A DNA stretch of 14,521 nucleotides from a virus (IMGVR_UViG_2563366855_000007:1-14521), one strand, 5' to 3'; positions 801-14,521 are shown, counted from the stretch's first letter. Notes: generated by a model from the sequence alone, not told the origin. Numbers and translations: made by a program.

Positions 801-965
801 AGTATATGTTCCTTACCGTCAGACGACACGCAGGCAACAGCCGTCCCGGTACGGGCAGCGTGGTCAGGTGTGAATGGCGGTTTCAGTTCAGTCTCATAAG
901 GGAAAATCAGTGTGGTGGCCATGAACACGTCATCACACTGAAGTCAGATAACTCGTCTGTCTGGC

Positions 966-1535
966 TCAGCCACGACTGCAGCCAAAGTTGCGCTCATCGG
1001 TGCAGTGAGCTTTGGTATGCTCCTTCGCCAGATAGTCAGCACGTTCCAGCACTTGCTGAAAGCCGGTGTCATCATTACGCGCCAGCCACACCGCCGGCCA
1101 GGCCGGAAAATGCACCAGCGTGGCATGGCATCCGGCATCCACCCCCAGGGCACTGCACCAGGCCTGTTCAATCATTCCGGCCAGTGATCCCGGAGCGCGG
1201 TAATCACCGGCACGACACCAGGTATCCCGGTTGACCAGCAGCATCAGATGATAGTGTTTTTTACCTTTGCACTCCCCAAACTCCCGGGCCCAGACGTAAT
1301 GCAGAGTGGTGGGATGCACGCGTTTACCTTCCCGATGCTTACGTTTCTGGTAAGCGTCGATTCGGGCTTTCAGGGCATTGATGAAGCGGGATATCACAGC
1401 TGCGTCCGTTGCTGCCGGTACATCCGGGAAACGCAGGTCAACCCGCAATGCCGTCAGGCGGGGATGAACATTCAGTGCGTGCCGCACTGTCTCACGAATA
1501 CGTTGCTGCCAGAAGGGGTTGTATTTGTAGGTCAT
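966..1535 (-). CDS. YfjJ/YagK-like (inovirus Gp2 family) protein
   Basis: ATG at 1533-1535 with GGAGAT SD 6 nt upstream (the track start at 1571 is a GTG without RBS). N-terminal YKYNPFWQQRI and RVDLRFP motifs recalled from the YagK/YfjJ family of E. coli cryptic prophage islands. Confidence 0.65.
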   Translation of the reverse strand: MTYKYNPFWQQRIRETVRHALNVHPRLTALRVDLRFPDVPAATDAAVISRFINALKARIDAYQKRKHREGKRVHPTTLHYVWAREFGECKGKKHYHLMLLVNRDTWCRAGDYRAPGSLAGMIEQAWCSALGVDAGCHATLVHFPAWPAVWLARNDDTGFQQVLERADYLAKEHTKAHCTDERNFGCSRG

Positions 1536-1667
1536 GGTTAAATCTCCGTATGGTTCATACGGAATAGCCACGTCGTAAAAAATGCGCAGAGTCCCTGAAG
1601 TGACCTCCGGCAGGGCACTGTCTCAGGCACTCTGTGATAACCCGAACGGTCGTCTCCGGACTGACGG

Positions 1668-1696
1668 TTGAATTTTCAGCGTTGTTTTTTTAATGT
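1668..1696 (+). promoter_or_regulatory. Sigma70-like promoter for the small zinc-ribbon gene
   Basis: TTGAAT (1668-1673), 17-nt spacer, TAATGT (1691-1696); about 40 nt upstream of ATG 1735. Confidence 0.4.
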
Positions 1697-1734
1697 AAAA
1701 AACCGGTTACGGGTAAGGCTGTGAGGAGGGAGTG

Positions 1735-1935
1735 ATGGTGATACGCAAAAAGAAGTGCAGGGACTGTGGAAACGCGATTACTCATAATACAGTGTGTTGC
1801 CCGTATTGTGGTTCTGTCGACCCCTTCGGCTATTACCGGAATACAGACCGTATCGTTACCATACTGCTGGCACTGATTATTGTGGTCCTGCTGACTACTG
1901 TCAGCGTCAGTGTGTATATACTGTGTAGCTGGTGA
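1735..1935 (+). CDS. Small zinc-ribbon membrane protein (66 aa)
   Basis: ATG 1735 with GAGGAGGG SD at 1723-1730. N-terminal C-x2-C ... C-x2-C zinc ribbon (CRDCGN...CPYCGS) followed by one hydrophobic helix (IVTILLALIIVVLLTTVSVSVYIL). Confidence 0.55.
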   Translation: MVIRKKKCRDCGNAITHNTVCCPYCGSVDPFGYYRNTDRIVTILLALIIVVLLTTVSVSVYILCSW

Positions 1936-2265
1936 GATAACGGTTCATGTATCCCCTGAGCTGACAGTGTACCGGGTATATTAAGCGTAACCGACAGGTT
2001 CTCCTTCATACCATATTAAATTTTTCCAGGTATTGCCGCTGCCTTATTTCGTCCCATACAGGAAAACTCGTCTGGGTTTCTGACAAATACGCGAAACTCA
2101 CAGCCCCTCAATATCAACCACACGCCGTAAGCCGGTAATACCTGATCAGACATGAGATAAATGAAGGGGGATCCGTGAGATAAATAACGAATTGGAGTGG
2201 GTTAACATGGGTTCTGGTGAACAGAACTGAAATTCTTTTCCGCTATACGATAGATAAGTCGGGCA

Positions 2266-2295
2266 TTGAAATCATCCTTCCTGGCAACTTAGAAT
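2266..2295 (+). promoter_or_regulatory. Sigma70-like promoter upstream of the 53-aa ORF
   Basis: TTGAAA (2266-2271), 18-nt spacer, TAGAAT (2290-2295). Confidence 0.35.
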
Positions 2296-2338
2296 CGAGT
2301 TTGCTGAAACATGACCCGCAACAAAAAGGATGATTCCA

Positions 2339-2500
2339 ATGACTACTCAAAACAATAAGCATGATAGCCTGGATTACTCAGAAAAGCCCAAAAGCAAGCA
2401 CATCGTGACGTTCGAGCGCGATTCCGGTAGAAAAGGAGAATCGTCTTCCTCTGCCAATAAAACCACTATGCCGGCAGCCCCTGCCCCAGGGAAAAAATAA
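2339..2500 (+). CDS. Hypothetical small hydrophilic protein (53 aa; below the ORF-track size cutoff)
   Basis: ATG 2339 with AAGGA 8 nt upstream, TAA at 2498-2500, candidate promoter upstream. Product MTTQNNKHDSLDYSEKPKSKHIVTFERDSGRKGESSSSANKTTMPAAPAPGKK is low-complexity; an in-frame alternative ATG lies at 2330. Confidence 0.25.
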   Translation: MTTQNNKHDSLDYSEKPKSKHIVTFERDSGRKGESSSSANKTTMPAAPAPGKK

Positions 2501-2503
2501 ACA

Positions 2504-3136
2504 TCATTCATCGTTCGTTGCACGAACGCGCCTGATCTCCACTCTGGCAATCTGATCTGCTGGAATATAGGTTGCCAGAGCTCCCCAGTACTTATCAACC
2601 ACGCCTTTATACTCTTCCCATTCGTTACTGCCTGAAGGGCTGCTGTGCGTGACGTAAAGAACCATATCGCCTTTATTCCCCTGGGTAAACGGACCGTTAG
2701 GCCACTCTTCAAAGTTCCCTGGCAGCCGTGACATCATACCGGAACCATCGCGAAGAATCACTCTGACCTCGGTAACGCTGAAGCCTGTTTGATCAAACAT
2801 TGCCTGCCATGCTGAGCTGGTATCGTCAGACCATGAAATATCATTATTCCACAGTAATCTGTACATCCATTTGCGACCGTACCTGCGCCACCACGCACCG
2901 CATGTAACGGCACACAGAAGTGCTGGTGGTGTTGCCAGCCAGGCATTCAGACCTGCCCACATAACAGCCTGGTAAGCCATCATTGCTGTCAGGCCAAAAA
3001 TCAGCGAAGAAAAAGTCACCTCAATGGGCTTGTGGTGATCCTTCAGTCCCACATTCGCAATAAAATACCCAATATAGCCACTGGTCAGGGTCACCAGTGT
3101 TGCCCATGGCAGATTTAACAACGAAACGTCAAACAT
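2504..3136 (-). CDS. Membrane protein: three predicted N-terminal TM helices plus about 125-aa soluble C-terminal domain; function unknown
   Basis: ATG at 3134-3136 with GGGAGA SD (alternative ATG at 3151 has poor spacing; track start 3214 is TTG). Hydrophobic segments LPWATLVTLTSGYIGYFIANV, VTFSSLIFGLTAMMAYQAVMWA, WLATPPALLCAVTCGAWW. Confidence 0.6.
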   Translation of the reverse strand: MFDVSLLNLPWATLVTLTSGYIGYFIANVGLKDHHKPIEVTFSSLIFGLTAMMAYQAVMWAGLNAWLATPPALLCAVTCGAWWRRYGRKWMYRLLWNNDISWSDDTSSAWQAMFDQTGFSVTEVRVILRDGSGMMSRLPGNFEEWPNGPFTQGNKGDMVLYVTHSSPSGSNEWEEYKGVVDKYWGALATYIPADQIARVEIRRVRATNDE

Positions 3137-3173
3137 ATTTTCTCCCTGCATCCTGAATACTAAAGAGAGAGCA

Positions 3174-3209
3174 TAAAAAAAGCACGGTAAGGGGTCTACC
3201 GTGCTTTTA
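3174..3209 (-). terminator. Rho-independent terminator ending the Mor operon (possibly bidirectional)
   Basis: Perfect 10-bp stem (3180-3189 / 3197-3206) with 7-nt loop. On the minus strand it is followed by a run of six U; on the plus strand by a shorter T-run (tttt). Confidence 0.7.
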
Positions 3210-3250
3210 TACAATAAGGAGATTTTTGAAAGGACTTTAACAAGCAGGAA

Positions 3251-3649
3251 TTATCTGGATTTGTTAACGTCTTTCGTCTCCTCTGGCAGATCTTCATCAA
3301 ACAACCTGCCCTGCATCCGATCCAGTTCTTCTTTTCTGACCCGCTTAACCACGCTGTAGACCCACTGAAGCGAAACACCAAACTTGCGGGCCAGTTCGTG
3401 GTGGTTGCGTCCGTTAAACTCCCTGAAGATTTCCCGGTCGCGCTGACTGACCTTCCATACCATGCCCATCGGGAAATAAACGTTTTGCCCGCCCCAGACC
3501 TGCATCATTCGGTTCGCGACGGCCTGACCAATCTGGTCGGCAATTGCGGGCTCAATATCAATAATCTCGCGAACGGTCTCAGAGGTATGCTGTGCCAGCT
3601 CCACCAGGAGTTCCGGCCCTTTACTTCGAAACTGATTCAGGTCGCTCAT
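3251..3649 (-). CDS. mor: Mor-family transcriptional activator (Mu middle operon regulator homolog)
   Basis: ATG 3647-3649 with GGGAG SD. Motifs GGQNVYFP ... RDREIFREFNGRN ... LARKFGVSLQWVYSVVKR match the Mor/C family pattern recalled from Mu Mor. Confidence 0.85.
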   Translation of the reverse strand: MSDLNQFRSKGPELLVELAQHTSETVREIIDIEPAIADQIGQAVANRMMQVWGGQNVYFPMGMVWKVSQRDREIFREFNGRNHHELARKFGVSLQWVYSVVKRVRKEELDRMQGRLFDEDLPEETKDVNKSR

Positions 3650-4073
3650 GTTTGACTCCCGCAGCTCTGCGCTGCCACTTCTTCAGTTTCTCAATAACAC
3701 TGCTTGCCTGTTCAGTACTGAGCCAGCGCAGGGCGCTGATGCCCGTTTCCCGCTTGATCCACCGCGCTAATGCATTTTCTGAACGGTCACGAACAATGCC
3801 GGCAGCAGCCATTTCAAGCCATAGCGCACGGATTTTCCTGGACTGCGGATGGTTATCCAGCGGTAAACCGGAGCTGGCTTTTCCGGCAGGCTTAACGCGA
3901 AAGCCTTTCCTTTTCATGGATTCCAGCACGCAGTTTAGTTGTGTGGTATCCATTCCTTTGGTTGAGGCTTTACCGGTCAGCCCCTGTAACATCTGGCGGT
4001 AGGTGTCTTCATCCATACCCAGTTCATTACGGGCAATATGAATGAGCTGGATAAGACGTTGTTTAGTCATCAT
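3621..4073 (-). CDS. gemA: GemA-like protein (Mu gp16 family)
   Basis: ATG 4071-4073 with AAGGAG SD; 3' end overlaps the mor start by 29 nt. N-terminal RLIQLIHIARNELGMDEDTYRQMLQGLTGKAS resembles the gp16/GemA family. Confidence 0.78.
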   Translation of the reverse strand: MMTKQRLIQLIHIARNELGMDEDTYRQMLQGLTGKASTKGMDTTQLNCVLESMKRKGFRVKPAGKASSGLPLDNHPQSRKIRALWLEMAAAGIVRDRSENALARWIKRETGISALRWLSTEQASSVIEKLKKWQRRAAGVKHERPESVSK

Positions 4074-4278
4074 CGTTGCTCCTTTTACCTGCGCCACCGA
4101 TATAATCGACATATAAAGGAAGCGCCACAGGCCAGCACAGGAACATCACCGACCAGCTAATCCAGTAGCCGGCACCACTGTAACGTGAATAAAACCCTGA
4201 ACGGCGGTGCAGTTCAGCAGTACACCAACCGACAAAACAATACCAGAACAGGGCACATACAACAGATTCAGCCGTCAT
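4063..4278 (-). CDS. Small two-TM membrane protein (71 aa)
   Basis: ATG 4276-4278 with G-rich SD; overlaps the upstream ORF stop by 11 nt and the gemA start by 11 nt (coupled). The hydrophobic sequence MTAESVVCALFWYCFVGW ... WISWSVMFLCWPVALPLYV supports the two-TM call. Confidence 0.45.
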   Translation of the reverse strand: MTAESVVCALFWYCFVGWCTAELHRRSGFYSRYSGAGYWISWSVMFLCWPVALPLYVDYIGGAGKRSNDDD

Positions 4279-4498
4279 TCTGAATATCCCCCCAACTGAT
4301 ATGAATATTACGGGCAGCAATGACAGGGTCGTTATTCCACCATGCACCTGACATGTATTTTTCAACCTGTTCGCGTCCGGCAATAACACCAATTGTGATC
4401 CCCGGCCTGACGTTCTTAAAAAAGGCGCGGGCAAAAAGGTATCTGGCAGATATTCGGCAGGCTTTTAATTTCCGGCTGTTACCTGATAGCGTAATCAT
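4268..4498 (-). CDS. Hypothetical protein (76 aa)
   Basis: ATG 4496-4498 with GGAGG SD; ATGA stop/start overlap with the upstream gene. Confidence 0.45.
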   Translation of the reverse strand: MITLSGNSRKLKACRISARYLFARAFFKNVRPGITIGVIAGREQVEKYMSGAWWNNDPVIAARNIHISWGDIQNDG

Positions 4499-5178
4499 CT
4501 GGCCTCCAGTTTCTGTTGTTCCTGCCCACTGACCGGGCGGTGCAGTCTGACGTTCTGCCCTTCAAGAAACCCCGCATAGCGCGAGGCGTCGCCATTGCGG
4601 CTTCTTCCCGGTTTACGCGCCCTGGTGGTTTGCGTCTGCGGGTATTTATGTTCCAGCCACTGCTGCATCAGTTCACGTTCGTCATCGGTCAGGGCGAAGG
4701 ACTGTATTTCACTGATAACGGCCAGCACCCAGCCTTCAGCAAACTGGTCACCACGGCTGGTACGGGTGGCAGTTTTTATTCTTTTGTTCTGTGCGCTGAT
4801 ATATTGCTGACGCGCCTTTTTCAGCTGGCGGGCCAGCACTTCCCAGGTGTACGCAGCCAGTGCAGCCCGTTCCCGGTTGCCGTAGAACCCCACACCCGGA
4901 TATGTGCCGGGGTGAATGATGGAGTTAACACCAAATGCCTCGCGGATGATGTTCATCAGGCCCAGCATGTAGCGCGGTGGACGGAGGCTGCCTGTCGGCC
5001 AGTAGTGACTGATGGTTTCATCAATATCACTCATGGCGATGTCGGAATGTGTGATGCCGTGAACATCCATCAGTTTACGGGCACGGCGCAGTGCCAGAGC
5101 GGCCTCGTGAGGGTTGCCGGATGCGGCCAGCGCCAGCAACTTTTTCAGTTTCTCAATGTGTTTATCCTGGTCTGTCAT
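4495..5178 (-). CDS. DUF2786-like protein (227 aa)
   Basis: ATG 5176-5178 with GGAGAT SD; ATGA overlap with the upstream gene. N-terminal KLKKLLALAASGNPHEAALALRRARKLM resembles the DUF2786 signature (from memory). Confidence 0.6.
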   Translation of the reverse strand: MTDQDKHIEKLKKLLALAASGNPHEAALALRRARKLMDVHGITHSDIAMSDIDETISHYWPTGSLRPPRYMLGLMNIIREAFGVNSIIHPGTYPGVGFYGNRERAALAAYTWEVLARQLKKARQQYISAQNKRIKTATRTSRGDQFAEGWVLAVISEIQSFALTDDERELMQQWLEHKYPQTQTTRARKPGRSRNGDASRYAGFLEGQNVRLHRPVSGQEQQKLEAR

Positions 5179-5480
5179 TGTTCAGTATCTCCGGTGTACA
5201 TGACGCCCAGCCGTGCGGCAAGGCGTTCCAGTTTTTTCTGTTTGTGGAAGTCAATCAGCCGGTCCATTCCCTGAAGGCGCAGTTGCTCTGTCATGATTTC
5301 CACGTCTGCCAGCTCTGCCGCGAGGTCACTTTCGCTGCCCTGTCCGTTCAGATTGCGGGCAGCACTGGCCGCCAGTTCAGCGGCCTCTTCTGTCAGTTTC
5401 AGGGCCTGTGCGTCCGGCCCGAAACGCTGCAGGGCCAGACGGTAGAGGGCGGTGCGGGTGAGTATGGTGTTCCGTGTCAT
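5175..5480 (-). CDS. MazG-like nucleotide pyrophosphohydrolase family protein (101 aa)
   Basis: ATG 5478-5480. EEAAELA ... AAELADVEIM acidic helix pair is typical of the all-alpha MazG-like NTP-PPase fold. Confidence 0.55.
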   Translation of the reverse strand: MTRNTILTRTALYRLALQRFGPDAQALKLTEEAAELAASAARNLNGQGSESDLAAELADVEIMTEQLRLQGMDRLIDFHKQKKLERLAARLGVMYTGDTEQ

Positions 5481-5489
5481 GCCGCGCCC

Positions 5490-5762
5490 TCAGTGCTTCC
5501 GGCTGACGGTGATGTGCAGGCCGCCTTCTGCAGTGGTTTCCATCCGGTACGGCACCTCATGCTCTGCCGTGTGGGTGAGTGTGTTCACCAGTACCTGCAG
5601 GGCAGCCGCCTTTCCGTTGGTCGCCACAATGGCCTGAGCGGTCATGCTGATTAGCGCCGTCAGGACGTGCTTCACATCGGTGAGGTCGCGGCATTCACAC
5701 TCGTTGACATAGTGTTCAACAAGGGTTCGGGTGCGCTGTCGTGCTTCCTGTGGGGTAATCAT
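5490..5762 (-). CDS. Hypothetical protein (90 aa)
   Basis: ATG 5760-5762 with GGGAGGA SD; ATGA overlap with the upstream zinc-ribbon ORF. Confidence 0.5.
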   Translation of the reverse strand: MITPQEARQRTRTLVEHYVNECECRDLTDVKHVLTALISMTAQAIVATNGKAAALQVLVNTLTHTAEHEVPYRMETTAEGGLHITVSRKH

Positions 5763-5953
5763 TGCGAGTCCTCCCTGTCAGGGCGGGAGAATTCCATGAC
5801 GGGCACGTCTGCCGAAAAATGCTGGCTGCAGTACGGGCAGACCAGGGTGACGCGTACCGCAGGGATGTGGTATTTACCGGACATCACGGCGATGGCGCTG
5901 TGAAAACGCAGGGCTGTTATATCCCTCTCGCACTGAATACATTTAAATATCAT
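5759..5953 (-). CDS. Small zinc-ribbon protein (64 aa)
   Basis: ATG 5951-5953 with GAGGAGA SD 8 nt upstream. C-x2-C (CIQC) ... C-x2-C (CPYC) arrangement. Confidence 0.5.
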   Translation of the reverse strand: MIFKCIQCERDITALRFHSAIAVMSGKYHIPAVRVTLVCPYCSQHFSADVPVMEFSRPDREDSQ

Positions 5954-6050
5954 GATTTAATTCTCCTCTGTTTCCGGCGTGCAGAAGCCCGCGGCGCTGA
6001 CGTCGGAATAAAAAAGAAAATGTTTTTATTAAATAATTAACGTGGTGTGT

Positions 6051-6581
6051 TTACTGCACATCCTGCTCAAAAGGAATTATTGAAAAATCCTCAATGTCGC
6101 TTTTAATGGAAATACCGGGAATATTTTTCACGGCCTCTTTTTCATTCAGGATAGCGTCTTTATTTATTTCCTCTTTTACACGAATAAAGCGCTCAAGCCC
6201 CAGACGTCTCAGTAATTCAATAACATTATCCGCCCCACGGATACTGACTGATGGCGGACGGTTTCGCCACTGCACCTCGCCGGTGGTGAGGTTAGCGAAC
6301 TTCACCTTCCCGTTGCCGGTCAGTTCATCACGGTGTGCCTCACACCATGTCTGAATACCGGACTGCAGTTCGGCCATGCGTTTTTTCAGGCTCTCGGTGA
6401 GCGGGGCATAACGTGCGGTGATATCGCCAATGGCGTCATTCATTTCTGTTTCAGCCCTGACCAGTTCACGTTGTGCGTCACCGAGTAGTCTGATTCCCTC
6501 AATGACCTCTTCACGTGTCCCCGGCACCCAGAGTGCTGCTGCGGCCTTGATACGTTTTGCACCTTTTGTACTTTTTGCCAT
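6051..6581 (-). CDS. gam: Gam (Mu-type host-nuclease inhibitor, DNA-end binding) homolog
   Basis: ATG 6579-6581 with GGAGAAA SD. MAK..KRIK.AAA..VP ... ETEMNDAI ... WCEA.RDELT..GKVK.ANL.TG.V.WR.RPPSVSIRG ... GL.RF.R.K.EINK.AIL ... SIIPFEQ matches Mu Gam as recalled, near full length. Confidence 0.9.
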   Translation of the reverse strand: MAKSTKGAKRIKAAAALWVPGTREEVIEGIRLLGDAQRELVRAETEMNDAIGDITARYAPLTESLKKRMAELQSGIQTWCEAHRDELTGNGKVKFANLTTGEVQWRNRPPSVSIRGADNVIELLRRLGLERFIRVKEEINKDAILNEKEAVKNIPGISIKSDIEDFSIIPFEQDVQ

Positions 6582-6608
6582 TTTTTATGATTTCTCCAGT
6601 TGTGCTGA

Positions 6609-6878
6609 TTACCACAAAGATTCCGGCCACACGACGCGACAGCCGTGCAGTTCGAAAACGCCCTGACGGAAATATCCCCTGTGGTCATGTCCGGTATACA
6701 GATAACAGGCCTTTCCCTGCTCAAGCATGCGCATGCAATGCGCACTCCGGGAAACGCGGATGACAGGTTTGTTACCCCTGATGGTGATGCTTTGTACATC
6801 CGTGTTCGTCGCCTTAAGCGCCATAATGGCTGACTGCACTTTGCTGATTTGCTGGTTGATACCTGTGGTGGATTTCAT
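6609..6878 (-). CDS. Hypothetical protein (89 aa) in the position occupied by kil in Mu
   Basis: ATG 6876-6878 with AAAGGGG SD, 3 nt downstream of the B-like stop. No recognisable motif; the kil analogy is positional only. Confidence 0.45.
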   Translation of the reverse strand: MKSTTGINQQISKVQSAIMALKATNTDVQSITIRGNKPVIRVSRSAHCMRMLEQGKACYLYTGHDHRGYFRQGVFELHGCRVVWPESLW

Positions 6879-6880
6879 TA

Positions 6881-8047
6881 TTAAACCCCTTTGACAACGT
6901 CAGCGTTGACCTGTGGAACCCCGATTTCAGCGGCCAGATTCATGGCGGCTATTACCAGGTTACTGACGGCCAGCGGATACAGCAGGCTGACCATATTTTT
7001 ACGGTGACTTCCCGGATTGCTCAGGCGGGCACGTATGGCATCCACTGCACCGGCGTCCATAATGTCCGTCAGCTGTTTACCGGCCCGTTGCAGTTTGAAC
7101 GTCAGAAATTCTTCAAGGTTATTGTCCAGAGGCAGAAGTTCGACCACCTCACAGCGCTGAACGACTTCACGGACTTCCATATTGCGTTCAGACAGTTTTG
7201 TCGCCAGTTCCGGCTGGCCAATCAGCACGATGGACAGCAGTTTTTTGAAACCGGACTCCAGCTCAAAAAAGCGTTTGAGGTGTTTCAGTGTCGGAATGGG
7301 CAGACTGTGGGCCTCCTCAATCACCAGAACGTGGCTGAACCCCGCCTGGCTGCTGTCTTTCAGGACGCGATGCAACTGGCGAAAACGGGCGTCCTGACTG
7401 CGTCTGATGCTTTCCAGTGGTGCGATGGTACTGATAATGGCTTCGGCAATAGCTGCTGCCTTCAGGGTTTTCCCTTTCACATCGTTGTCTTCCATAGCGA
7501 TGATGTATGGCTCGATAACAATTACCGGCGCATTCTCGCGGTTGATACGTTCAGTCAGGTCGCGGCGCAGCGTGGATTTACCCGCACCGGACTCACCGAT
7601 GACGGCCATAAACCCACCATGACGGGCTGTCTGGTACAGCGCCTCACGCACGTAGCGAATGTCCGGGGTGGTGAACACATCATCAGAACCCTGCATGGCT
7701 TCGTCGGCGAACGGGTCACGGAAAAGACCAAACGCTTTTTTGGTTGCTGGAAATAACACCTGTTTTTTGAGTAACATATTCTCTTCCTCACTGAGGCTCG
7801 TTTTATCTGTGGTACCCGCTGTACGGGGCGTGGCCGCGCCCTGTACAGCATCAAAACTCTTCGTTGTATCAATCCCCTGACTTTCCAGCCAGGACGCAAG
7901 ACGCCGGCGCACTTCTCCGGGGCTGGTGCGGGGCCACGCGTTATGATTCACAATCTGGGCCAGCGTGGCCTCAGAAACATCGACAGCTCTCGCCACCACC
8001 GCCTGTGGAATACGGGCCTCTTTCAGTTGCTGCTTCAGTACCAGCAT
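6881..8047 (-). CDS. Transposition ATPase, MuB-like (AAA+ with N-terminal HTH)
   Basis: ATG 8045-8047 with GAGGAGGG SD that spans the A-like stop (track start 8086 is GTG with no SD). Walker A GESGAGKS, Walker B-like VLVIEEAH, N-terminal HTH (VSEATLAQIVN). Confidence 0.8.
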   Translation of the reverse strand: MLVLKQQLKEARIPQAVVARAVDVSEATLAQIVNHNAWPRTSPGEVRRRLASWLESQGIDTTKSFDAVQGAATPRTAGTTDKTSLSEEENMLLKKQVLFPATKKAFGLFRDPFADEAMQGSDDVFTTPDIRYVREALYQTARHGGFMAVIGESGAGKSTLRRDLTERINRENAPVIVIEPYIIAMEDNDVKGKTLKAAAIAEAIISTIAPLESIRRSQDARFRQLHRVLKDSSQAGFSHVLVIEEAHSLPIPTLKHLKRFFELESGFKKLLSIVLIGQPELATKLSERNMEVREVVQRCEVVELLPLDNNLEEFLTFKLQRAGKQLTDIMDAGAVDAIRARLSNPGSHRKNMVSLLYPLAVSNLVIAAMNLAAEIGVPQVNADVVKGV

Positions 8048-8057
8048 GTTTCCCTCC

Positions 8058-9827
8058 TCAGTTGCCGTTAACAATGCTGATAACACTGCTGCGGGCCGGT
8101 GTGGTCAGCGTGGCCATGACTTCATCCAGTGCGGCTTCCGGTACGCCGTCCGGGTACTGTGCCGTTAACTGGCGGTAATGTTCCGGCGTCCAGGTAAGGC
8201 CGTCGGCGCTGAACTTATCGCGCAGGGCTTTCGCGGCCTCCACATGAGTCATGGGACGTTGTTCAGTGCGCGGCCCGCGTACGTCAGAGGCCTGACCACG
8301 CTTCGGCATATAGGCCGGAAGTGTGGTGTCGTCGATATGTTTATACGGGTCAAGCCGCCCGCCGAACGGCAGCGCCTTCGCCTTGCGTGCGGCGGCTGCA
8401 TCTGCGGCGTTGTCTGTACCGGTAACCAGCGCTTCGGTTTCTTTTGCCGCCATCTGTGCCGGGGTTTCCGGCAGGGCTTTGTAACTTTCGCCAAATACCG
8501 CCGCGCCTTCAGCAAAGCCAAACTCGTTCTTTCTGACCTCTTCGACCAGGAAGAACGTCTCGTGGCCGTCCTCACCGGTCAGAACCACCTGTGCCACATC
8601 GCTGCGCCATGGGTTACGGGTAATCATCAGTTTTTCACCAACCAGTACGCCCGGTACCGTTGATACGTCAAATTCAGTGCCCCGGAACGAGACACGAAGT
8701 TTTGGCGTGACTTTGCGGAGTTCTGGTGCCGCCACAGCCAGTTCACGACATACCTCAACGGAAGGCGCTTTTTTCAGCTGCTCAGCAGTAATCTTCAGCC
8801 AGATATCCGTGCGGGTTTTACCGTGGCGGCTGTGAACAGCCGTGGCGTTAAAGTGGCTGCGCCATTTCGCGGCCAGCGCGTTGAGTTCTTCCAGACTGTG
8901 AACCGGCCGGAACTTCAGACCCGGCTCCAGCTTGCGTTCGATAATGTCACGCGCCTTTTCCACCTGTCCGGTGGCGCGGGCGTTATGCGGCTTGTGCGCT
9001 ATCAGGTCGATGCCCAGTGAGCGGCACATGTTTTTCGTCATACCCGCGGTGTTTGCCGAGCCGGGGTCGAGATAGAGTATTTTCGGCACGCCGTGCAGCA
9101 CGTCTGCGCCGCCACGCTCCTGCATGGCGTTGATAAGCACAGAACACAGGTTCTCACCTGATTCCGCGCCCGTCACATACTCAACGTAAATCCAGCCGCT
9201 GGCATGGTCGGTAATCTCGTAACTCCACACGCGGTCACTGGCGATACGGGCAAGGTTAGCGGGCTTGTTCTTGTAGAACTTCGCGCTGTCCATCACCTGC
9301 AGCCCTTTATGTCCATTGCTCAGGTAGTAAAGCGTGCAGAGTGAGGCGTCAATCTGCCAGACATGATTGGGATGCAGACTGGCCACTTCGGTATGTGGTG
9401 CAGGGGCATCCAGTTGTTCCGGGTGCAGGCCATAGTTACGCAGAGCACGGCTGATGGCATCTTCAGACAACGGGAAAAACTCACTGGTGGTTTCATCTGT
9501 TCTGCCTGCGGTGATAAAGCCGTTAGCCCGCAGGGTTTCCACTGCATCTGCGATGGAATAGAGACGCTTACCGTTCTTGCGGGTGGCCTCACGCAGTGTG
9601 GCAGATATCAGCGCGGCTTCGTCGCGGGTCAGGGCGCTGCGCCCGGCATCGGCGCGTTTTTTGCGTTTATCAGTCACAGATACCTCCTTCAGCCTGCGCA
9701 GCAGAGTGGCGCGGGACATGCCAAGTTCAGCACAGGCAGCGTCGTATACTGCGCCGCGTTTACCATGCCCCGCGTCACGTGCCGCGCGGGCGACATAAAC
9801 CAGTCGTTCAGTCAGGGCAGCATTCAT
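8058..9827 (-). CDS. DDE transposase, MuA-like (rve/integrase core; 589 aa)
   Basis: ATG 9825-9827 with GGAGG SD. Catalytic triad candidates D in HVWQIDAS, D in LYLDPGSANT, E in GQVEKARDIIERK; N-terminal HTH. Sits directly upstream of the AAA+ partner as in Mu A-B. Confidence 0.85.
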   Translation of the reverse strand: MNAALTERLVYVARAARDAGHGKRGAVYDAACAELGMSRATLLRRLKEVSVTDKRKKRADAGRSALTRDEAALISATLREATRKNGKRLYSIADAVETLRANGFITAGRTDETTSEFFPLSEDAISRALRNYGLHPEQLDAPAPHTEVASLHPNHVWQIDASLCTLYYLSNGHKGLQVMDSAKFYKNKPANLARIASDRVWSYEITDHASGWIYVEYVTGAESGENLCSVLINAMQERGGADVLHGVPKILYLDPGSANTAGMTKNMCRSLGIDLIAHKPHNARATGQVEKARDIIERKLEPGLKFRPVHSLEELNALAAKWRSHFNATAVHSRHGKTRTDIWLKITAEQLKKAPSVEVCRELAVAAPELRKVTPKLRVSFRGTEFDVSTVPGVLVGEKLMITRNPWRSDVAQVVLTGEDGHETFFLVEEVRKNEFGFAEGAAVFGESYKALPETPAQMAAKETEALVTGTDNAADAAAARKAKALPFGGRLDPYKHIDDTTLPAYMPKRGQASDVRGPRTEQRPMTHVEAAKALRDKFSADGLTWTPEHYRQLTAQYPDGVPEAALDEVMATLTTPARSSVISIVNGN

Positions 9828-9830
9828 TGG

Positions 9831-10742
9831 TTATGCCTCCAGCCCGTTAATCTGTGGCGTCGACTCAGTCAGCCATGAAGGCGCTGCATTGCCTGTTGGC
9901 TCGTCCGGCAGGTCAAATGTGGAGCGCAGGCTACGCGCTGTGCTTTCCAGTTGACAGACCAGGCCTGCCATGAAGTCTCTGGGGGTATCAATCATGTTTT
10001 CAGCACAATATGCGCACAGCGTCTCAAAAGCGCTGGACAGTCGGACGGCGATGGCAGATTCCGCCTCAACCGCTAATGCTGTTACTTCCGCCCGCAGCTT
10101 CTTAACCTCCTCATCAGGCTCAGGTGGCTGAATACGGGATTTCTTCTCCAGTCTGGTGGAGAGTGAGTCTATTTTTTCATTTTTGTCGGCGAGTACGCGC
10201 TGTTGTGCTGCGTTGGTTTCGCGCGCTTCGCGCAGGGCCTGACGCAATTCACGTACTGACATGCGATCAACATCGTCAAGCGTCAGTCCGGCAACTGTGC
10301 CACCGTCGGCCAGTTCAGCAAGGTCGTCGTCATCTTCAGCAACAAGTTCAAATAATTTTGCCTTACCTAAAAGCGACAACGTTGTCGCTTTTGGCTCTAG
10401 TTTTGGTGAAAGGTATTTCAAAGATGCTTTCATCATTCGTTGTGCTGCGCGCACATGCAGACCAAGTTGTTCTTCTACAATTCCAACAAAGTCCCCGTGA
10501 GGTTCATTTTCTTTGAGAATAATAAGTCGTTTACCTGCTTCCAGCATGGCCTCAGCGCTCTGTGCCATATAAAACCGAGCCTCATGAACTATGCGATCAC
10601 GCTCATAGGGCTGACCATCGCCAAACTGCTGCATGATCTCCATACGATGCTGTGTCATGGCGTTCAGACTGACATTGAGATCATCCGACAGCGGTACCTC
10701 GGCGTTCAGTTCAGTGTTAATCGGTGATTTGGTGCGTCCCAT
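9831..10742 (-). CDS. DUF3102-like protein (303 aa) with acidic linker and coiled-coil
   Basis: ATG 10740-10742 with AAGGAG SD; stop 3 nt before the A-like start. IVHEARFYMAQSAEAMLEAGKRLIILKENEPHGDFVGIVEEQLGLHVRAAQRMM resembles the DUF3102 core (from memory). Confidence 0.55.
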   Translation of the reverse strand: MGRTKSPINTELNAEVPLSDDLNVSLNAMTQHRMEIMQQFGDGQPYERDRIVHEARFYMAQSAEAMLEAGKRLIILKENEPHGDFVGIVEEQLGLHVRAAQRMMKASLKYLSPKLEPKATTLSLLGKAKLFELVAEDDDDLAELADGGTVAGLTLDDVDRMSVRELRQALREARETNAAQQRVLADKNEKIDSLSTRLEKKSRIQPPEPDEEVKKLRAEVTALAVEAESAIAVRLSSAFETLCAYCAENMIDTPRDFMAGLVCQLESTARSLRSTFDLPDEPTGNAAPSWLTESTPQINGLEA

Positions 10743-10752
10743 TTATTACTCC

Positions 10753-11061
10753 TTACAAACGACTACCTGAAATGACACGTTGGTTGATTTCGTTAATGCG
10801 ATCCTGTGCACGTGCCATCTCGTTACTGTGGGCCATAGCGATCTGCAGTAACTGGATGCCCGGCGCGAAACGCCCGTTTTCCAGTTTCAGGGCCAACCCT
10901 TCTTCAATGAGGGTGTTGAGTGCCCGGTTGATGTTTGCCGGTGACTCGTGCAGTGCTGCCGCCAGTTCACCGTTGGAAATACCGTTCAGGGCATGACCGC
11001 GCAGCGCTTTGAGTACCCGGAGGATGCGACTGCCGGAGCTTGAAACATTCGTCTTACTCAT
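10753..11061 (-). CDS. Winged-helix (IclR/MarR-like) DNA-binding regulator (102 aa)
   Basis: Second ATG (11059-11061) has AAGAGG SD at good spacing; the first ATG (11067) is 1 nt from the SD. ILRVLKAL ... GISNGELAAALHESPANINRALNTLIEEGL is a classic wHTH pattern. Confidence 0.55.
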   Translation of the reverse strand: MSKTNVSSSGSRILRVLKALRGHALNGISNGELAAALHESPANINRALNTLIEEGLALKLENGRFAPGIQLLQIAMAHSNEMARAQDRINEINQRVISGSRL

Positions 11062-11113
11062 CTGCATACCTCTTTTGCGATATGTGATAACCTTTTACAA
11101 AGACTCAAAATCT

Positions 11114-11302
11114 TCAGGCTGCCTGAGCTGTTGATTTCAGCCCCAACTTCACGGCGATTTCATGGGATTTACCGTAACGGGCTTTGGTCTGCCCATTGAG
11201 AACGCGGTATACCTCATTGCGGTTGTAGCCGTTTTCTTCTGCCCAGCGGGTGAAAGTGATCCCGCGCTGGCGGAAGAGAGCTTTGACTTGTTCTGCAGTC
11301 AT
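11114..11302 (-). CDS. ner: Ner/Nlp-like small DNA-binding regulator (62 aa)
   Basis: First gene after the early promoter; ATG 11300-11302 with AAGGAG SD. Pattern RQRGITFTRWAEENGY ... GKSHEIAVKLG parallels the Ner/Nlp fold; the assignment is by position and pattern. Confidence 0.55.
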   Translation of the reverse strand: MTAEQVKALFRQRGITFTRWAEENGYNRNEVYRVLNGQTKARYGKSHEIAVKLGLKSTAQAA

Positions 11303-11349
11303 CGTTGTCTCCTTTGTTGATGCAATGATGTTTGCCTTATGTGTGATAG

Positions 11350-11378
11350 ATTATGGTGCAGATTACCTCACCAGTCAA
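11350..11378 (-). promoter_or_regulatory. Early promoter (Pe-like) in the divergent repressor/ner switch region
   Basis: On the minus strand TTGACT (plus 11373-11378), 17-nt spacer, CATAAT (plus 11350-11355), about 45 nt upstream of the ner-like ATG. The spacer contains TGCAGATTACC and a nearby AGATTA repeat, candidate operator sites. Confidence 0.55.
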
Positions 11379-11402
11379 CTTAAAGAGTGCAGAAAAACTC
11401 AC

Positions 11403-11741
11403 ATGATCGGGTTACGTATTAAAGAAGAAAGAGAGCGTCTATCTCTTACACAGCAAGGGTTGGCTGATGCTATAGGTGTGGCAAAGAGAACTTTCATTGA
11501 TTGGGAAAAAGATCGCACTTCTCCTACTGCAGTGCAGTTATCTGCACTATCAGAAATCGGTGTAGATATTTTGTATGTAGTTACTGGGGTGCGGAGTCAG
11601 CCTGTTGTTGCACCTTATGTGTCACAAGAAAAGAAAGAGTTAATGGATGCATTCGACGAAATGAGCCCCGAACAACGGAGGGCAATTCTTGAGGTCGGCA
11701 AAGTCTTCATTCAACCCAAACCAAGCAAACTCGCAGGCTGA
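11403..11741 (+). CDS. XRE-family (Cro/CI-type HTH) repressor, divergent from the early operon
   Basis: ATG 11403 opens directly on the HTH (LSLTQQGLADAIGVAKRTFIDWEKDRTSPT); weak RBS. The track ORF from 11250 begins with GTG and would run through the early promoter. Confidence 0.65.
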   Translation: MIGLRIKEERERLSLTQQGLADAIGVAKRTFIDWEKDRTSPTAVQLSALSEIGVDILYVVTGVRSQPVVAPYVSQEKKELMDAFDEMSPEQRRAILEVGKVFIQPKPSKLAG

Positions 11742-11827
11742 TTTTGACCTGGACACAAAGGACAGGTGGTTGATCTGGATGCTTTCAGAAAACATCGCCA
11801 GTGACATAGTGGAAGTTGTTTGGTTTA

Positions 11828-11859
11828 CCGGAAAGCATTGTGCTTTCCGGTTTTGTTTC
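11828..11859 (+). terminator. Rho-independent terminator downstream of the repressor gene
   Basis: Perfect 10-bp stem CCGGAAAGCA / TGCTTTCCGG (11828-11837 / 11841-11850), 3-nt loop, then TTTTGTTTC. Confidence 0.75.
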
Positions 11860-12622
11860 AGAAGTTGCAGATTACCAGTTCACGGCGCGGCGTGGATTTC
11901 CCCGCCAGACTGTAGTTGATGTTCACTGTCTGTATGTTCAGTCCAGTGAACACCTCGCGCATCTGTGGGATATCGTTCACCGAAATTATCATTTTTCCTC
12001 TGATGCACCGGGCCAGCTCTGCCAGCCGCGAGTAGTTCCCTTCAGGAAAATCCACACCATAGCCTTCCGTACCCAGGTACGGTGGGTCGCAGTAGAACAG
12101 TGTGTGCGGACGATCATAACGCTCAATGCACTGTTGCCAGTCCATGTGTTCTATGACTGTTCTGGAAAGCCGCAGGTGTGCTGCTGACAGTTCTTCTTCA
12201 ATACGCAGCAGGTTGAAGCGTGGCGGGGATGTGGTGGAGGTACCGAAGCTGTGCTCTGCCACCTTGCCGCCAAACGCCTGCTTCTGAAGGTAGTAGAACC
12301 GTGCCGCACGCTGGATATCCGTCAGTGTTTCTTCCGGGGTGATCTGCAGCCATTTGTAGATCTGACGGCTGACCAGCGCCCATTTGAACTGGCGGACAAA
12401 TTCTTCCAGGTGATGCTTTACCACCCGGTACAGATTCACCAGTTCACCGTTGATATCATTGATGACTTCGATCTTGCCGGGTGTCTTAAGAAAATAGAGC
12501 GCTGCTGCCCCACAAAACGGCTCCACATAACATTCATGCGCCGGAAACAGCGGCAGGATGTGTTTTGCCAGGCGACGTTTGCCACCAATCCATGGAACGA
12601 TGGGTAATGTCTTCATTTTCAT
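11858..12622 (-). CDS. Dam-family (D12 class) DNA N6-adenine methyltransferase, orphan
   Basis: ATG 12620-12622. N-terminal PWIGGKRRL, motif I EPFCGAAALYF, catalytic DPPY, C-terminal RRELVICNF. No adjacent restriction endonuclease candidate. Confidence 0.88.
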   Translation of the reverse strand: MKMKTLPIVPWIGGKRRLAKHILPLFPAHECYVEPFCGAAALYFLKTPGKIEVINDINGELVNLYRVVKHHLEEFVRQFKWALVSRQIYKWLQITPEETLTDIQRAARFYYLQKQAFGGKVAEHSFGTSTTSPPRFNLLRIEEELSAAHLRLSRTVIEHMDWQQCIERYDRPHTLFYCDPPYLGTEGYGVDFPEGNYSRLAELARCIRGKMIISVNDIPQMREVFTGLNIQTVNINYSLAGKSTPRRELVICNF

Positions 12623-12663
12623 AATCTGTAAGCCTTTTACAATTATTAAAAATATGGCAGGCT

Positions 12664-12770
12664 AGTCTGGTCTCGCGAGACTGACTGAACCTCGGTCGGC
12701 TCACAGCCACTTCTGTGGGACGATGGCCAGCCCGGTGGGTCCGAAGCACCGGGCTGGTCGTTCTTTCATG
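12664..12770. promoter_or_regulatory. Structured non-coding region upstream of the Dam-like gene: 12-bp perfect palindrome plus GC-rich hairpin
   Basis: GTCTCGCGAGAC at 12670-12681 flanked by AGTC/GACT; 11-bp perfect stem CCAGCCCGGTG / CACCGGGCTGG (12727-12737 / 12747-12757) with 9-nt loop, followed on the plus strand by TCGTTCTTTC. Confidence 0.35.
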
Positions 12771-12813
12771 ATGCGGCAGGGATAGTGGGATTTCTGTTAA
12801 TGTGGTTTAGGGA

Positions 12814-13029
12814 TTATCCGGGGCGATTTTCTGACCTTATCCGGTCCAGGGCATAAGTAATACCTTCTGCAAAAACAGAAGTATCAAACTGCTTTTGTAT
12901 TCCCTGAAAATGAAAAGCGGCACGACAGACACTCAGTTCTCCGCGATGTAACCGGATAATATCTTCCAGAACATTGTTCACTGCTTCAGCACGGCGCTGA
13001 TGTTCTGTTAACGTTAATCGGGGATTCAT
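12814..13029 (-). CDS. Hypothetical protein (71 aa)
   Basis: ATG 13027-13029 with AAGGAG SD 6 nt upstream; no recognisable domain. Confidence 0.4.
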   Translation of the reverse strand: MNPRLTLTEHQRRAEAVNNVLEDIIRLHRGELSVCRAAFHFQGIQKQFDTSVFAEGITYALDRIRSENRPG

Positions 13030-13432
13030 GATGCACTCCTTAAATGATGATTTTTATGCACTCACCGGCAAAATATTCTGCCGATTACTGAACACGCATC
13101 CGGCACCTCAGGTTTTGATTTATTCTGGTTTTTTCGATATCCCGGACCAGGTTGATCACGACCAGAAAAAGTGCCGGTATTTTATTGATACGCTGATATG
13201 GCTTCGGGATAACAGCTATATTCGTTACTCTCAGTTGCTGGCTGTGGGAGCGGCTGATGTCGTCCTCACGGAAAAAACGCTCCGTCTGCTCAATGCCACG
13301 CCGACCCTTCTGCAGCCCCGGCCCGCACCATTTAAAGAGTCACTTCTGGATGCAGTAAAAACCGGTGAAAATGCAGTCATCGCTGAATGCGTATCCCGGA
13401 TTATGCGTTACGTGTTTAATGAACGTAAGTGA
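13028..13432 (+). CDS. Hypothetical protein (about 134 aa)
   Basis: ATG 13028 or 13031 with a weak GGGGA SD. The start overlaps the divergent 71-aa ORF start and the 3' end overlaps the P-loop gene by 25 nt, so it may not be real. Confidence 0.3.
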   Translation: MMHSLNDDFYALTGKIFCRLLNTHPAPQVLIYSGFFDIPDQVDHDQKKCRYFIDTLIWLRDNSYIRYSQLLAVGAADVVLTEKTLRLLNATPTLLQPRPAPFKESLLDAVKTGENAVIAECVSRIMRYVFNERK

Positions 13433-14151
13433 GGTTTATCCGCTGTCTGCATAATCCCGATAGCCAGTGCGAGGGGAAGTAATTCCGGGGAAACTCTTTC
13501 AAACAGCGACTCCCATTCTCCTCTCGCCATCACTCTGTCCAGCCCGCCCCCCAGTTGCATTTCAGCAATCTTCCTGATTTCCCGGAACAACGCCGCTTTG
13601 ATCTCTTCGTGCTCAGCTTTATTTTCCGGTGTCAGAATGTATTCGTCGAAGAACCGGGGAGGCTGGTTAACGGGGAGCGTGTTCACCGGGATGTGTTCCT
13701 GTTTCCCGTACTTCGGGGCAGAAAAACATTCTGTTGGCTGACCGGTGAGTTTACGTAGCTCCTTCATGAGCAGCTCCTGATCGTAAACTGTCATCAGTGC
13801 CGCAATGGTGGCATGCAGTGCATCGGGCAGTATCCAGGGTTGCCGGCCCGTGGGGCATATAACATCCAGCAGCTCATTCGTCCGACAGATACGCTCCTCG
13901 CCGTATGACAACAGGCCCTGTCCCGTGTATTCCTCCAGCTTGATCACTGTGCCACCCCGTGGCTTCTGCCAGGTCGTCAGATCATCGCCACTCATACGCC
14001 GCTCATCATCTACGTCTGCAGCATCGACAATGACGCTGCCCCCGAATTCCTGTTTCACCACTTCCTCTATCCGCGCCAATATGTAACTTTTACCGCTGCC
14101 CACAGGACCGGACACGGTGACAGTGATGACCGGATTCAGTGTCTGCGTCAT
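13408..14151 (-). CDS. P-loop NTPase, kinase-like (247 aa), function unknown
   Basis: ATG 14149-14151 with GAGGAGA SD 7 nt upstream. Walker A GPVGSGKS immediately after an N-terminal beta strand (VITVTVSG), as in small-molecule/nucleotide kinases. Confidence 0.65.
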   Translation of the reverse strand: MTQTLNPVITVTVSGPVGSGKSYILARIEEVVKQEFGGSVIVDAADVDDERRMSGDDLTTWQKPRGGTVIKLEEYTGQGLLSYGEERICRTNELLDVICPTGRQPWILPDALHATIAALMTVYDQELLMKELRKLTGQPTECFSAPKYGKQEHIPVNTLPVNQPPRFFDEYILTPENKAEHEEIKAALFREIRKIAEMQLGGGLDRVMARGEWESLFERVSPELLPLALAIGIMQTADKPHLRSLNT

Positions 14152-14281
14152 ATCGTATTCTCCTCTGTGAATAATTCATCGTTTATCCTGCACATCCCGT
14201 ATCCCCGGCTCTCTTAACGCGCTTTAAAATCCTTCGCGCCCTGTATTTGTGATGCTGTCTCCACCAGACAAGGAGACACAC

Positions 14282-14521
14282 ATGAAAAACCTGAAAAAAT
14301 TCATTCCCCCTGTTAAAAAACCTCGCCTCAGCGGCTGGCTGCTGACCTCAGTGCTGTTGCTGGGCACCATCGCTCTGGTCTCGCCACAGCAGTTGCCTGT
14401 TGTGATCTACAAGCTGGCACTCATCACGCTGGCAGCAGTGCTGGGTTACTGGCTTGACCGTTCGCTCTTCCCCAAAGCCCGTCCCGGTCAGTACCTGAAA
14501 CATGACGACAGGCTGATGGCT
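14282..14521 (+). CDS. Membrane protein, 3'-truncated at window end (at least 80 aa)
   Basis: ATG 14282 with AGGAGA SD 5 nt upstream; no stop before the window end. Basic N-terminus then two hydrophobic segments (LSGWLLTSVLLLGTIALV, VVIYKLALITLAAVLGYWL). Confidence 0.55.
   Translation, partial: MKNLKKFIPPVKKPRLSGWLLTSVLLLGTIALVSPQQLPVVIYKLALITLAAVLGYWLDRSLFPKARPGQYLKHDDRLMA

Follow-up and report, generated by a model that had tools for sequence, protein, structure and literature searches.

The window (the whole stretch of DNA that was analyzed, IMGVR_UViG_2563366855_000007:1-14521, 14,521 nucleotides) contains a predicted adenine methyltransferase gene on its bottom strand, between the immunity genes and the lysis genes of a transposable prophage. 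The main features of the locus are as follows.

2143 to 2185 (+): end of the transposable prophage, 5'-TGATCAGACA..., with host DNA (1 to 2142) on its left, placed by junction comparison
2153 to 2162 and 2176 to 2185 (+): two direct repeats, TGAGATAAAT, at the prophage end
3251 to 3649 (-): gene for a transcription activator of the Mor family, with which the early arm ends (PF08765, E = 1.1e-43)
8058 to 9827 (-): DDE (rve) transposase gene (PF00665), annotated as a transposase in PhiKM and EC958
11404 to 11741 (+): putative repressor gene encoding a DicA/CI-like HTH protein (HTH_3, E = 3e-7; DicA-like NF007257, E = 1.1e-10); the RefSeq start is at 11283
11827 to 11858 (+): predicted intrinsic terminator of the repressor transcript, with an 11-bp stem-loop at 11827 to 11851 and a T-tail at 11852 to 11858 (terminator scan and folds of both strands)
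11858 to 12622 (-): predicted orphan D12/alpha-class N6-adenine DNA methyltransferase gene (M.EcoMIV type, phage B3 ORF48 clade), 254 aa, assigned from the ORF, profile matches and the EC958 match
14282 to 14521 (+): beginning of the holin gene, with which the lysis/late arm opens (80 aa, 100% identical to the annotated holin by tblastn; annotation in related prophages)

We compared the window with phage and chromosomal sequences. Positions 3291 to 14521 are 96% identical to Escherichia phage PhiKM (Bcepmuvirus), with 73% of the window covered, and the right-hand 3.5 kb matches prophages in many E. coli chromosomes at 100%. Positions 1 to 2145 are unrelated host island DNA, matched elsewhere. 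In strain Z0117EC0117 the end of the same prophage is next to a truncated rfaH, and in EC958 a close relative is inserted beside ycaL; the terminus common to three junctions, TGAT[CT]AGAC[AT]TGAGATAAATGA, has its first base at position 2143 of the window. The early arm, on the bottom strand, encodes the DDE transposase, an ExeA-like ATPase, Gam and the Mor-family activator, which is likely the switch for the late genes, and runs towards the end at 2143. On the top strand, the immunity genes are followed by a lysis cassette and then by P2-like morphogenesis genes, so that the immunity genes form the interface between the two arms. Since the holin gene starts at 14282, the prophage extends past the window. 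This two-arm layout is the published layout of BcepMu (PMC2771037). Together with the TG terminus and the different insertion sites found in three genomes, it identifies the element as a BcepMu-like transposable prophage of E. coli whose gene order is not that of Mu. A previous reading of the DNA from its sequence alone (here, the sequence-only reading) had presumed the Mu order (end-c-ner-A-B); it had left open whether the methylase lies inside or outside the element and held that the answer bears on the position of the left end. We mapped the element end relative to position 12622, as that reading had proposed, and found the end at 2143 and the late genes from 14282 onward. The methylase is thus internal to a BcepMu-type element, approximately 9.7 kb from the end, in a variable zone between the immunity and lysis genes. 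Given the BcepMu order and the end at 2143, the gene is therefore uninformative on the boundary, and the corrected architecture removes the supposed tie between the two.

ORF calling and translation of positions 11858 to 12622 on the bottom strand yielded an ATG-to-TGA reading frame of 254 aa. Its coordinates are matched by RefSeq, which annotates a "DNA adenine methylase" in an identical prophage. The protein matched the Pfam family MethyltransfD12 (PF02086) with an E value of 5.9e-29 and 102 bits (cut-off, 22). The alignment, in which residues 11 to 234 correspond to profile positions 1 to 248 of 253, represents a full-length family match. Matches were also obtained to phrog_56 (E = 6e-101), to the PADLOC model MTase_II (E = 5.9e-113) and, by a small margin, to the NCBIfam "dam" subfamily TIGR00571 (117.4 bits; cut-off, 114.85); with the model of the E. 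coli Dam equivalog, NF008152, the score stayed below the cut-off (68.3 versus 441). The following segments of the protein were located.

12578 to 12592 (-), aa 11 to 15: WIGGK motif
12500 to 12523 (-), aa 34 to 41: motif I, AdoMet binding, EPFCGAAA, an FxGxA variant of FxGxG in which the last Gly is Ala
12215 to 12274 (-), aa 117 to 136: segment FGGKVAEHSFGTSTTSPPRF, corresponding to the beta-hairpin with which EcoDam reads DNA (multiple alignment; separate pairwise alignments with 2g1p and 2dpm)
12077 to 12088 (-), aa 179 to 182: motif IV, catalytic DPPY

The motif order, with motif I N-terminal and DPPY C-terminal, is that of the alpha class. Alignment with EcoDam and DpnM shows no variation at E34, F36 and G38, and in the multiple alignment the protein retained all of the columns that are invariant among Dam, DpnM and the phage homologues. 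The family matches and the presence of WIGGK, EPFCGAAA and DPPY agree with the earlier description of a Dam-family adenine methyltransferase with complete motifs. Also as described there, the gene is phage borne and convergent with the HTH repressor-like gene, which ends at 11741. Comparison with orthologues at a pS of 0.53 to 0.62, where synonymous sites are half saturated, gave dN/dS values of 0.07 to 0.09, indicating strong purifying selection on the protein. The gene for this D12-class N6-adenine methyltransferase is thus intact and selectively maintained.

Between the two convergent genes, folding revealed a GC-rich hairpin at 11827 to 11851 (-18.5 kcal/mol, z = -4.95). EC958 and PhiKM carry the identical hairpin, and another one occupies this place in KP12. 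On the + strand the hairpin is followed by UUUUGUUU (TTTGTTT). The tail on the - strand is UAAACCAAACAAC, without a U-tract, and the terminator scan called no - strand terminator at 11827 to 11851. The methylase stop codon (11858 to 11860) comes 7 nt after the stem on its 3' side and shares just one base, the final T, with the + strand tail. It is therefore located in the T-tail and not inside the hairpin, where the sequence-only reading had put it. The same reading had assigned the terminator to both convergent transcripts, a view at odds with a U-tract that is present on the repressor strand only. By its structure, we consider the hairpin to be a canonical intrinsic terminator of the repressor strand alone. 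For the methylase mRNA, it would be at most a 3' stabilizer.

The surroundings of the methylase were searched against Pfam, NCBIfam, PHROGs, PADLOC and PDB sequences, and no nuclease or defence signature was detected in its neighbours. Three genes lie at 12814 to 14151, encoding proteins of 71 aa, 134 aa and 247 aa, the last with an N-terminal P-loop. A comparison of 18 related loci showed that these genes are confined to the window and the EC958 lineage. In seven of the 18 loci (E. coli AF22, two Mixta species, Symbiopectobacterium, Intestinirhabdus, Erwinia dacicola and Limnobaculum), only an intergenic region of approximately 250 nt separates the methylase from the divergent holin gene, and elsewhere unrelated cargo fills this slot. 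The methylase itself is broken by an internal stop, frameshifts or an insertion in four of the 18 and deleted in three. With seven of the 18 related prophages lacking an intact copy, the comparison shows that the methylase is an accessory gene of a mosaic region: prophage carriage does not require it, and possibly the phage does not either. The absence of nuclease matches and the different neighbours in the 18 loci bear out the proposal that the gene lacks a cognate endonuclease. We also looked for the adjacent restriction gene outside the window that would have spoken against this proposal, and beyond the window we found lysis and structural genes. The methylase is most probably an orphan, with the proviso that divergent nucleases can escape profile searches.

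The gene is not new. Its product is identical at 251 of 254 positions to the sole methylase of prophage Phi2 of the E. coli ST131 strain EC958. We identify the EC958 prophage as Phi2 because the invertible tail-fibre segment of Phi2 (1005540 to 1007607; PMC4134206) falls within the annotated prophage. Forde et al. (2015, mBio; PMC4659465) named this gene M.EcoMIV (EC958_1101) and described it as an orphan D12 type II enzyme. According to that study, its transcription in the EC958 lysogen in LB was significantly below that of dam, no methylation motif could be assigned to it, and the EC958 methylome contained no unassigned m6A motif. REBASE classes the enzyme as putative type IIA, i.e., with an asymmetric site, and none of its relatives above 65% identity has a known recognition site (PMC4659465). 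The "Dam-like" methylases of ST101 prophages were likewise left without a specificity, and the unassigned ones were judged to be inactive or silent under the growth conditions tested. DNA matching positions 11750 to 12850 was present in 556 of 5,426 complete E. coli genomes (approximately 10%), and proteins of 85 to 89% identity occur in Salmonella, Citrobacter, Enterobacter, Klebsiella, Serratia, Yersinia and Pantoea. The closest phage relatives (58 to 67% identity) are orphan methylases of temperate phages; homologues are usually found at the end of lysis, tail or late operons or at the extreme right end of Mu-like phages. Hundreds of genomes have this gene in their annotation, all sources call it DNA adenine methylase, and it already bears a name in the style of REBASE. 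From these matches, we take the window's methylase to be the same gene as M.EcoMIV, already known and ordinary for a temperate phage.

Directly upstream of the methylase start, we observed a near-invariant noncoding element of approximately 125 nt. Its features, and a promoter match next to it, are listed below.

12616 to 12643 (+): sigma-70-like promoter match, TTTTCA-16-TACAAT, with 9 of 12 consensus matches; it overlaps the methylase start codon and points into the element
12645 to 12770 (+): conserved noncoding element
12670 to 12681: perfect 12-bp palindrome, GTCTCGCGAGAC, within the element
12700 to 12719 (+): hairpin H2, 7 bp, within the element
12722 to 12762 (+): hairpin H3, 16 bp, terminator-like and followed by CUUUCAU, within the element

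In alignments, the element is near-invariant in prophages of at least 13 genera, and an exact 23-mer from it, GGTCTCGCGAGACTGACTGAACC, occurs in 12 further species; the coding DNA beside it has diverged at more than half of the synonymous sites. It is kept together with a methylase 5' remnant of 23 to 80 nt in E. coli A24 and 8178, and also in a Pantoea prophage without any methylase gene. The whole element occurs once per prophage, and three loci have a partial second copy, spanning H2 and H3, a short way upstream of the holin gene. The consensus fold has 39 pairs and -47.8 kcal/mol on the + strand versus 30 pairs and -38.6 kcal/mol on the - strand. The fold z-score of the element is -4.3. 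Every one-sided substitution in H3 leaves a G.U pair on the + strand, where the - strand would have an A.C mismatch. Covariation is confined to four H3 pairs, a number matched by 4 of 500 shuffles, and the other two helices never vary. Neither Rfam at the gathering threshold over the whole window nor a permissive search of 11700 to 13100 returned anything credible, leaving the element without an Rfam family, and a literal search of the literature for its sequence gave no match. We also looked for other copies of the palindrome GTCTCGCGAGAC, which could have marked an operator or activator site in shared use; there is one exact copy only, and near-matches occur at chance level. The promoter match at 12616 to 12643, a consensus match only, is weaker in most other genera (CTTTCA and TGCAAT). 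The promoter scan called no sigma-70 promoter on the - strand upstream of the methylase, whose own promoter must lie within or overlap 12645 to 12770. Its best -10 candidate, CATATT at 12658 to 12653, is invariant; the -35 is poor, and the palindrome lies over the -35 position. The element may be a small RNA made from the + strand, or it may serve late transcription as a leader or attenuator; a third possibility is a regulator-binding site together with a terminator that insulates against read-through out of the immunity operon. For transcript mapping it offers a concrete and inexpensive target, in a prophage family carried by about a tenth of complete E. coli genomes and by many other Enterobacterales. 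As it stands, the methylase gene itself is of little consequence, and the residual interest lies in the specificity of the enzyme and in this element beside it.

Regarding the role of the gene, we favor a model, to which we give a probability of roughly 60%, in which the methylase is orphan cargo that is near-silent in the lysogen and on during lytic growth, when it would methylate progeny DNA against restriction. The near-silence would be due to its own promoter, which has no recognizable -35 and is overlapped by the invariant palindrome; transcription continuing past the repressor gene, if any, would run antisense to the methylase. Switching on in lytic growth is the step that we infer, the expression data at hand being those of the lysogen. 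Progeny phage DNA methylated before packaging would then survive restriction in the next host. Such a job would parallel that of Mom in Mu and of the methylases at the mom position in other Mu-like phages, and it is this analogy, together with the silence of M.EcoMIV in the lysogen, that makes methylation of progeny DNA the likely role. Several observations count against a lytic anti-restriction function. No Com is present here, so that any regulation would differ from that in B3 and Mu; the methylase is on the strand opposite the late operon and is not part of it; and, as described above, 7 of the 18 related prophages have no intact copy. Moreover, lysogens of phi1026b express its homologue (RPKM 21,563; PMC2920897), which fits lysogenic conversion better than a strictly late role.

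A lysogenic-conversion gene would be expressed from the prophage and act either as an epigenetic regulator of host genes or as a shield of the host chromosome against incoming restriction. The gene does lie in a moron-like variable region beside the immunity genes, phiE125 lysogens reportedly acquire N6-methyladenine, and the phi1026b copy is expressed in a lysogen. However, the EC958 gene is transcribed far below dam in a methylome that holds no unassigned m6A motif, the Dam-like genes of ST101 prophages behave likewise, and the gene is often a pseudogene in prophages. We therefore consider this role improbable. Far less probable still, and close to negligible in our estimation, is that the methylase supplies the modification activity in a restriction-modification or other defence system made up with its 71-aa, 134-aa and P-loop neighbours. 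The top PADLOC model, MTase_II, a weak match to PD-Lambda-5_B and the N-terminal P-loop of the 247-aa protein could be read in this way, the more so as restriction nucleases are often missed by sequence profiles. Yet none of the neighbours fits any nuclease or defence model, and all three are found only in the window and the EC958 lineage. In seven loci the methylase directly abuts the holin promoter region, its neighbours elsewhere are unrelated, and past the window come lysis and structural genes.

A separate question is whether the enzyme is a true, GATC-specific Dam, which would top up GATC methylation when phage replication outpaces the host Dam and would thereby shield progeny DNA from MutH nicking or GATC cutters, or time phage functions by hemimethylation. 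The passed "dam" cut-off of TIGR00571 speaks for this, as do the nearest solved structures, DpnM and EcoDam, and the name DNA adenine methylase used by every source. The 64%-identical VP882 enzyme is also said to have DNA adenine methylase activity; secondary citations say only "DNA methylase activity." Against this, the pass of TIGR00571 is marginal and the equivalog score is 68 versus 441. Residues K9 and R124 of EcoDam are, according to established structural work, those that contact the two G:C pairs of GATC. Pairwise alignment to EcoDam (2g1p) and DpnM (2dpm), in agreement with the multiple alignment, placed Pro10 and Ala122 at these positions. EcoDam and DpnM have Lys and Arg there, and the replacement extends across the whole clade, the KP12, VP882, phiE125 and B3 homologues having Pro or Ser and Ala, Thr, Glu or Asp. 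REBASE predicts an asymmetric site for M.EcoMIV, and the GenBank note for phiE125 gp27 mentions similarity to the AlwI methylase. The phage also has fewer GATC sites than expected (observed/expected, 0.54 to 0.60), which is suggestive only as a proxy for specificity, and the early region includes 5.9 kb without any GATC; neither would be expected if the phage reliably methylated its own GATC sites. Finally, the hosts are Dam+ already. AamA of Acinetobacter was considered as a lead to the specificity and dropped when no sequence link was found. We regard a true Dam as a possibility on the unlikely side. The term "Dam" in the sequence-only reading is thus sound at the family level and unsupported in the GATC sense, and GATC specificity should not be assumed for what is probably a family label only. 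With the K9 and R124 equivalents absent and NF008152 far below its cut-off, the DpnI/MboI assay proposed with that reading may be uninformative; the distinction matters for such assays and for the interpretation of ST131 methylomes. More tentatively, and with doubts of a similar order, the B3-ORF48-type clade, having lost both GATC-reading residues, may be non-GATC or strongly relaxed in specificity and may serve a mom-like, tightly repressed, broad anti-restriction function, while the structured + strand element could be a small RNA or leader that coordinates the methylase with the lysis/late operon. This mom-like reading is based, by analogy, on the relaxed specificity shown for the separate Hia5 subfamily.

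We compared the methylase with known systems. The nearest is M.EcoMIV in EC958 Phi2, which shares the prophage type, the position, the neighbours and the D12 domain; the two proteins differ by three substitutions (K4Q, S243P and V250L), and the window prophage is located at another chromosomal site and has an extra module of approximately 1.1 kb at the Mor end. More widely, the methylase belongs to a clade that is common in temperate and transposable phages (B3 ORF48, phiE125 gp27 and VP882 gp37). ORF48 ("Dam") of the transposable Pseudomonas phage B3 is 63% identical over its full length and has also lost the K9 and R124 equivalents. It occupies the position of mom in Mu, and its activity had not yet been assayed as of 2011 (PMC3299994). 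Whereas ORF48 lies in the late region and is co-oriented with it, the window gene occupies a central place, with immunity genes on one side and lysis genes on the other, and is oriented divergently to the late arm, and so does not hold the mom position. In B3, ORF48 is preceded and overlapped by the Com gene ORF47 (PF10122, E = 4e-22), Com being a zinc-ribbon translational activator. No Com-like ORF was found upstream of the window's methylase at 12600 to 12830, and the 71-aa overlapping ORF had no match to PF10122 or any other Pfam family in a search in which the B3 control was positive (E = 4e-22).

The enzymes of phiE125 (gp27), phi1026b (gp26) and KS9 (gp25) from Burkholderia, VP882 (gp37) from Vibrio and phiHAP-1 from Halomonas are 64 to 66% identical to the window's methylase. 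They resemble it in length, motifs, orphan status, residence in a temperate phage and location beside lysis or tail genes. They differ in belonging to nontransposable phages with other regulatory contexts, and the phi1026b copy is the one expressed in the lysogen. EcoDam, DpnM of S. pneumoniae and T4 Dam, all GATC methylases of solved structure, share the fold family, the motif order, an FxGxG-type motif I and DPPY and can be aligned end to end; T4 Dam was not among the sequence matches at an E value of 0.001 or below. These three are only 25 to 32% identical to the window's enzyme, which lacks the K9 and R124 equivalents and scores below the Dam equivalog.

Hia5, Hin1523 and Nma1821 are nonspecific adenine methylases that Mu-like prophages carry in the mom position (Drozdz et al., 2012; PMC3299994). 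Hia5 and Hin1523 methylate almost any adenine, make DNA resistant to many restriction enzymes and are silent in lysogens (PMC3299994). Like the window's enzyme, they are Dam-related orphans of transposable prophages with a target-recognition region diverged from that of Dam and a presumed role in the broad protection of phage DNA. They nevertheless form a separate subfamily, B3 ORF48 being outside the 1,000 best relatives of Hia5 (PMC3299994), and they are Com linked, located at the right end and of demonstrated relaxed specificity. Mom of Mu, encoded in the com-mom operon, is an unrelated protein without homology to the methylase; its chemistry yields acetamido-adenine, its expression depends on Com and C, and it needs the host Dam. 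What it would share with the methylase is the proposed role, a late and tightly controlled modification of adenine against restriction.

Immediately upstream of the methylase gene, an orphan D12-class adenine methyltransferase gene of the M.EcoMIV type (11858-12622, minus strand), the prophage carries a non-coding block that is nearly invariant among the BcepMu-like prophages found in 13 or more enterobacterial genera. This block and the other features of the prophage and its flank are as follows.

Features of the prophage and the adjoining host DNA
1-2142: host genomic-island segment with inovirus Gp2-family and zinc-ribbon genes
2143-2185: end of the prophage, reading 5'-TGATCAGACA and then a pair of direct repeats
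2153-2162 and 2176-2185: direct repeats TGAGATAAAT of the prophage terminus
2330-3214: cargo ORFs of 53 to 56 aa (plus strand) and 210 to 236 aa (minus strand)
12645-12770, plus strand: conserved non-coding block of about 125 nt, flanked by 12577-12644 and 12794-12814
12814-14151: three-gene insertion between the conserved block and the holin gene, considered together with 12794-12814 and 14214-14230; genes for 71 aa (minus strand), 134 aa (plus strand) and a 247-aa P-loop protein (minus strand)
14257-14277: inverted repeat GTCTCC-N9-GGAGAC, just upstream of the holin ATG at 14282

Conservation of the block exceeds that of the coding DNA beside it, and prophages from which the methylase gene has been deleted still keep it. 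It contains a perfect 12-bp palindrome and three plus-strand hairpins, the last of which is terminator-like and shows four compensatory pairs. No Rfam family matches the block, and its sequence was not found in the literature searched. It could be a small RNA, the leader of a late operon or an insulator.

In phage PhiKM (L001 29908-30762), the deposited methylase start lies 30 codons further upstream, giving 284 aa, and falls within this block. Cross-genus alignment supports the predicted start that gives 254 aa over the one annotated in PhiKM. The gene itself is frequently decayed among related prophages (loci L008, L012, L015, L021, L005, L009 and L010). It has an internal stop in E. coli AF22, frameshifts in Symbiopectobacterium and Intestinirhabdus, and an insertion of about 2 kb after codon 23 in Apirhabdus. 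It is deleted in E. coli A24, E. coli 8178 and Pantoea, two of which retain 5' remnants.

On the other side of the block, the three-gene insertion is confined to the lineage of the window, and the only matches of its genes were PHROG families of unknown function. Upstream of the holin gene lies the motif TTAACGCGCTTTAAAAT, and the insertion bears a degenerate version of it, TTAATGTGGTTTAGGGAT, at its opposite edge; this pair points to duplication of a late-promoter region. The inverted repeat, which is kept in E. coli AF22, includes in its 3' arm the Shine-Dalgarno sequence of the holin gene, AAGGAG (14270-14275), and may act as a hairpin that controls holin translation.

At the opposite end, the direct repeats of the terminus are likely transposase-binding sites. 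Two GATC sites occur here, one at the very tip (2144) and one between the repeats (2170). The terminus of the EC958 prophage Phi2 lacks both; therefore, the terminal GATCs are not essential. Many E. coli genomes carry the island segment elsewhere, with the prophage absent. Among the matches listed, no complete genome covered at least 80% of window 1-4000, which spans the host-prophage junction, consistent with transposition to varied sites. Between this end and the Mor gene (3251-3649, minus strand), we observed about 1.1 kb of additional cargo (2330-3214). Neither of its ORFs matched a family; the module is present in strain Z0117EC0117 and missing from EC958 Phi2 and PhiKM.

We also observed a 5.9-kb stretch devoid of GATC (4398-10264) that spans the early, transposase/replication arm. 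The 12.4 kb of prophage within the window holds 30 GATCs. Overall, the observed/expected ratio of GATC in the phage is 0.54 to 0.60. The largest gaps were only 1.0 to 1.8 kb for other 4-mers matched in composition and close in number of sites. The desert is kept at 5.9 to 6.1 kb in Z0117EC0117, EC958 Phi2 and PhiKM; GATC-free regions in mobile elements generally have been noted by Forde et al. (PMC4659465).
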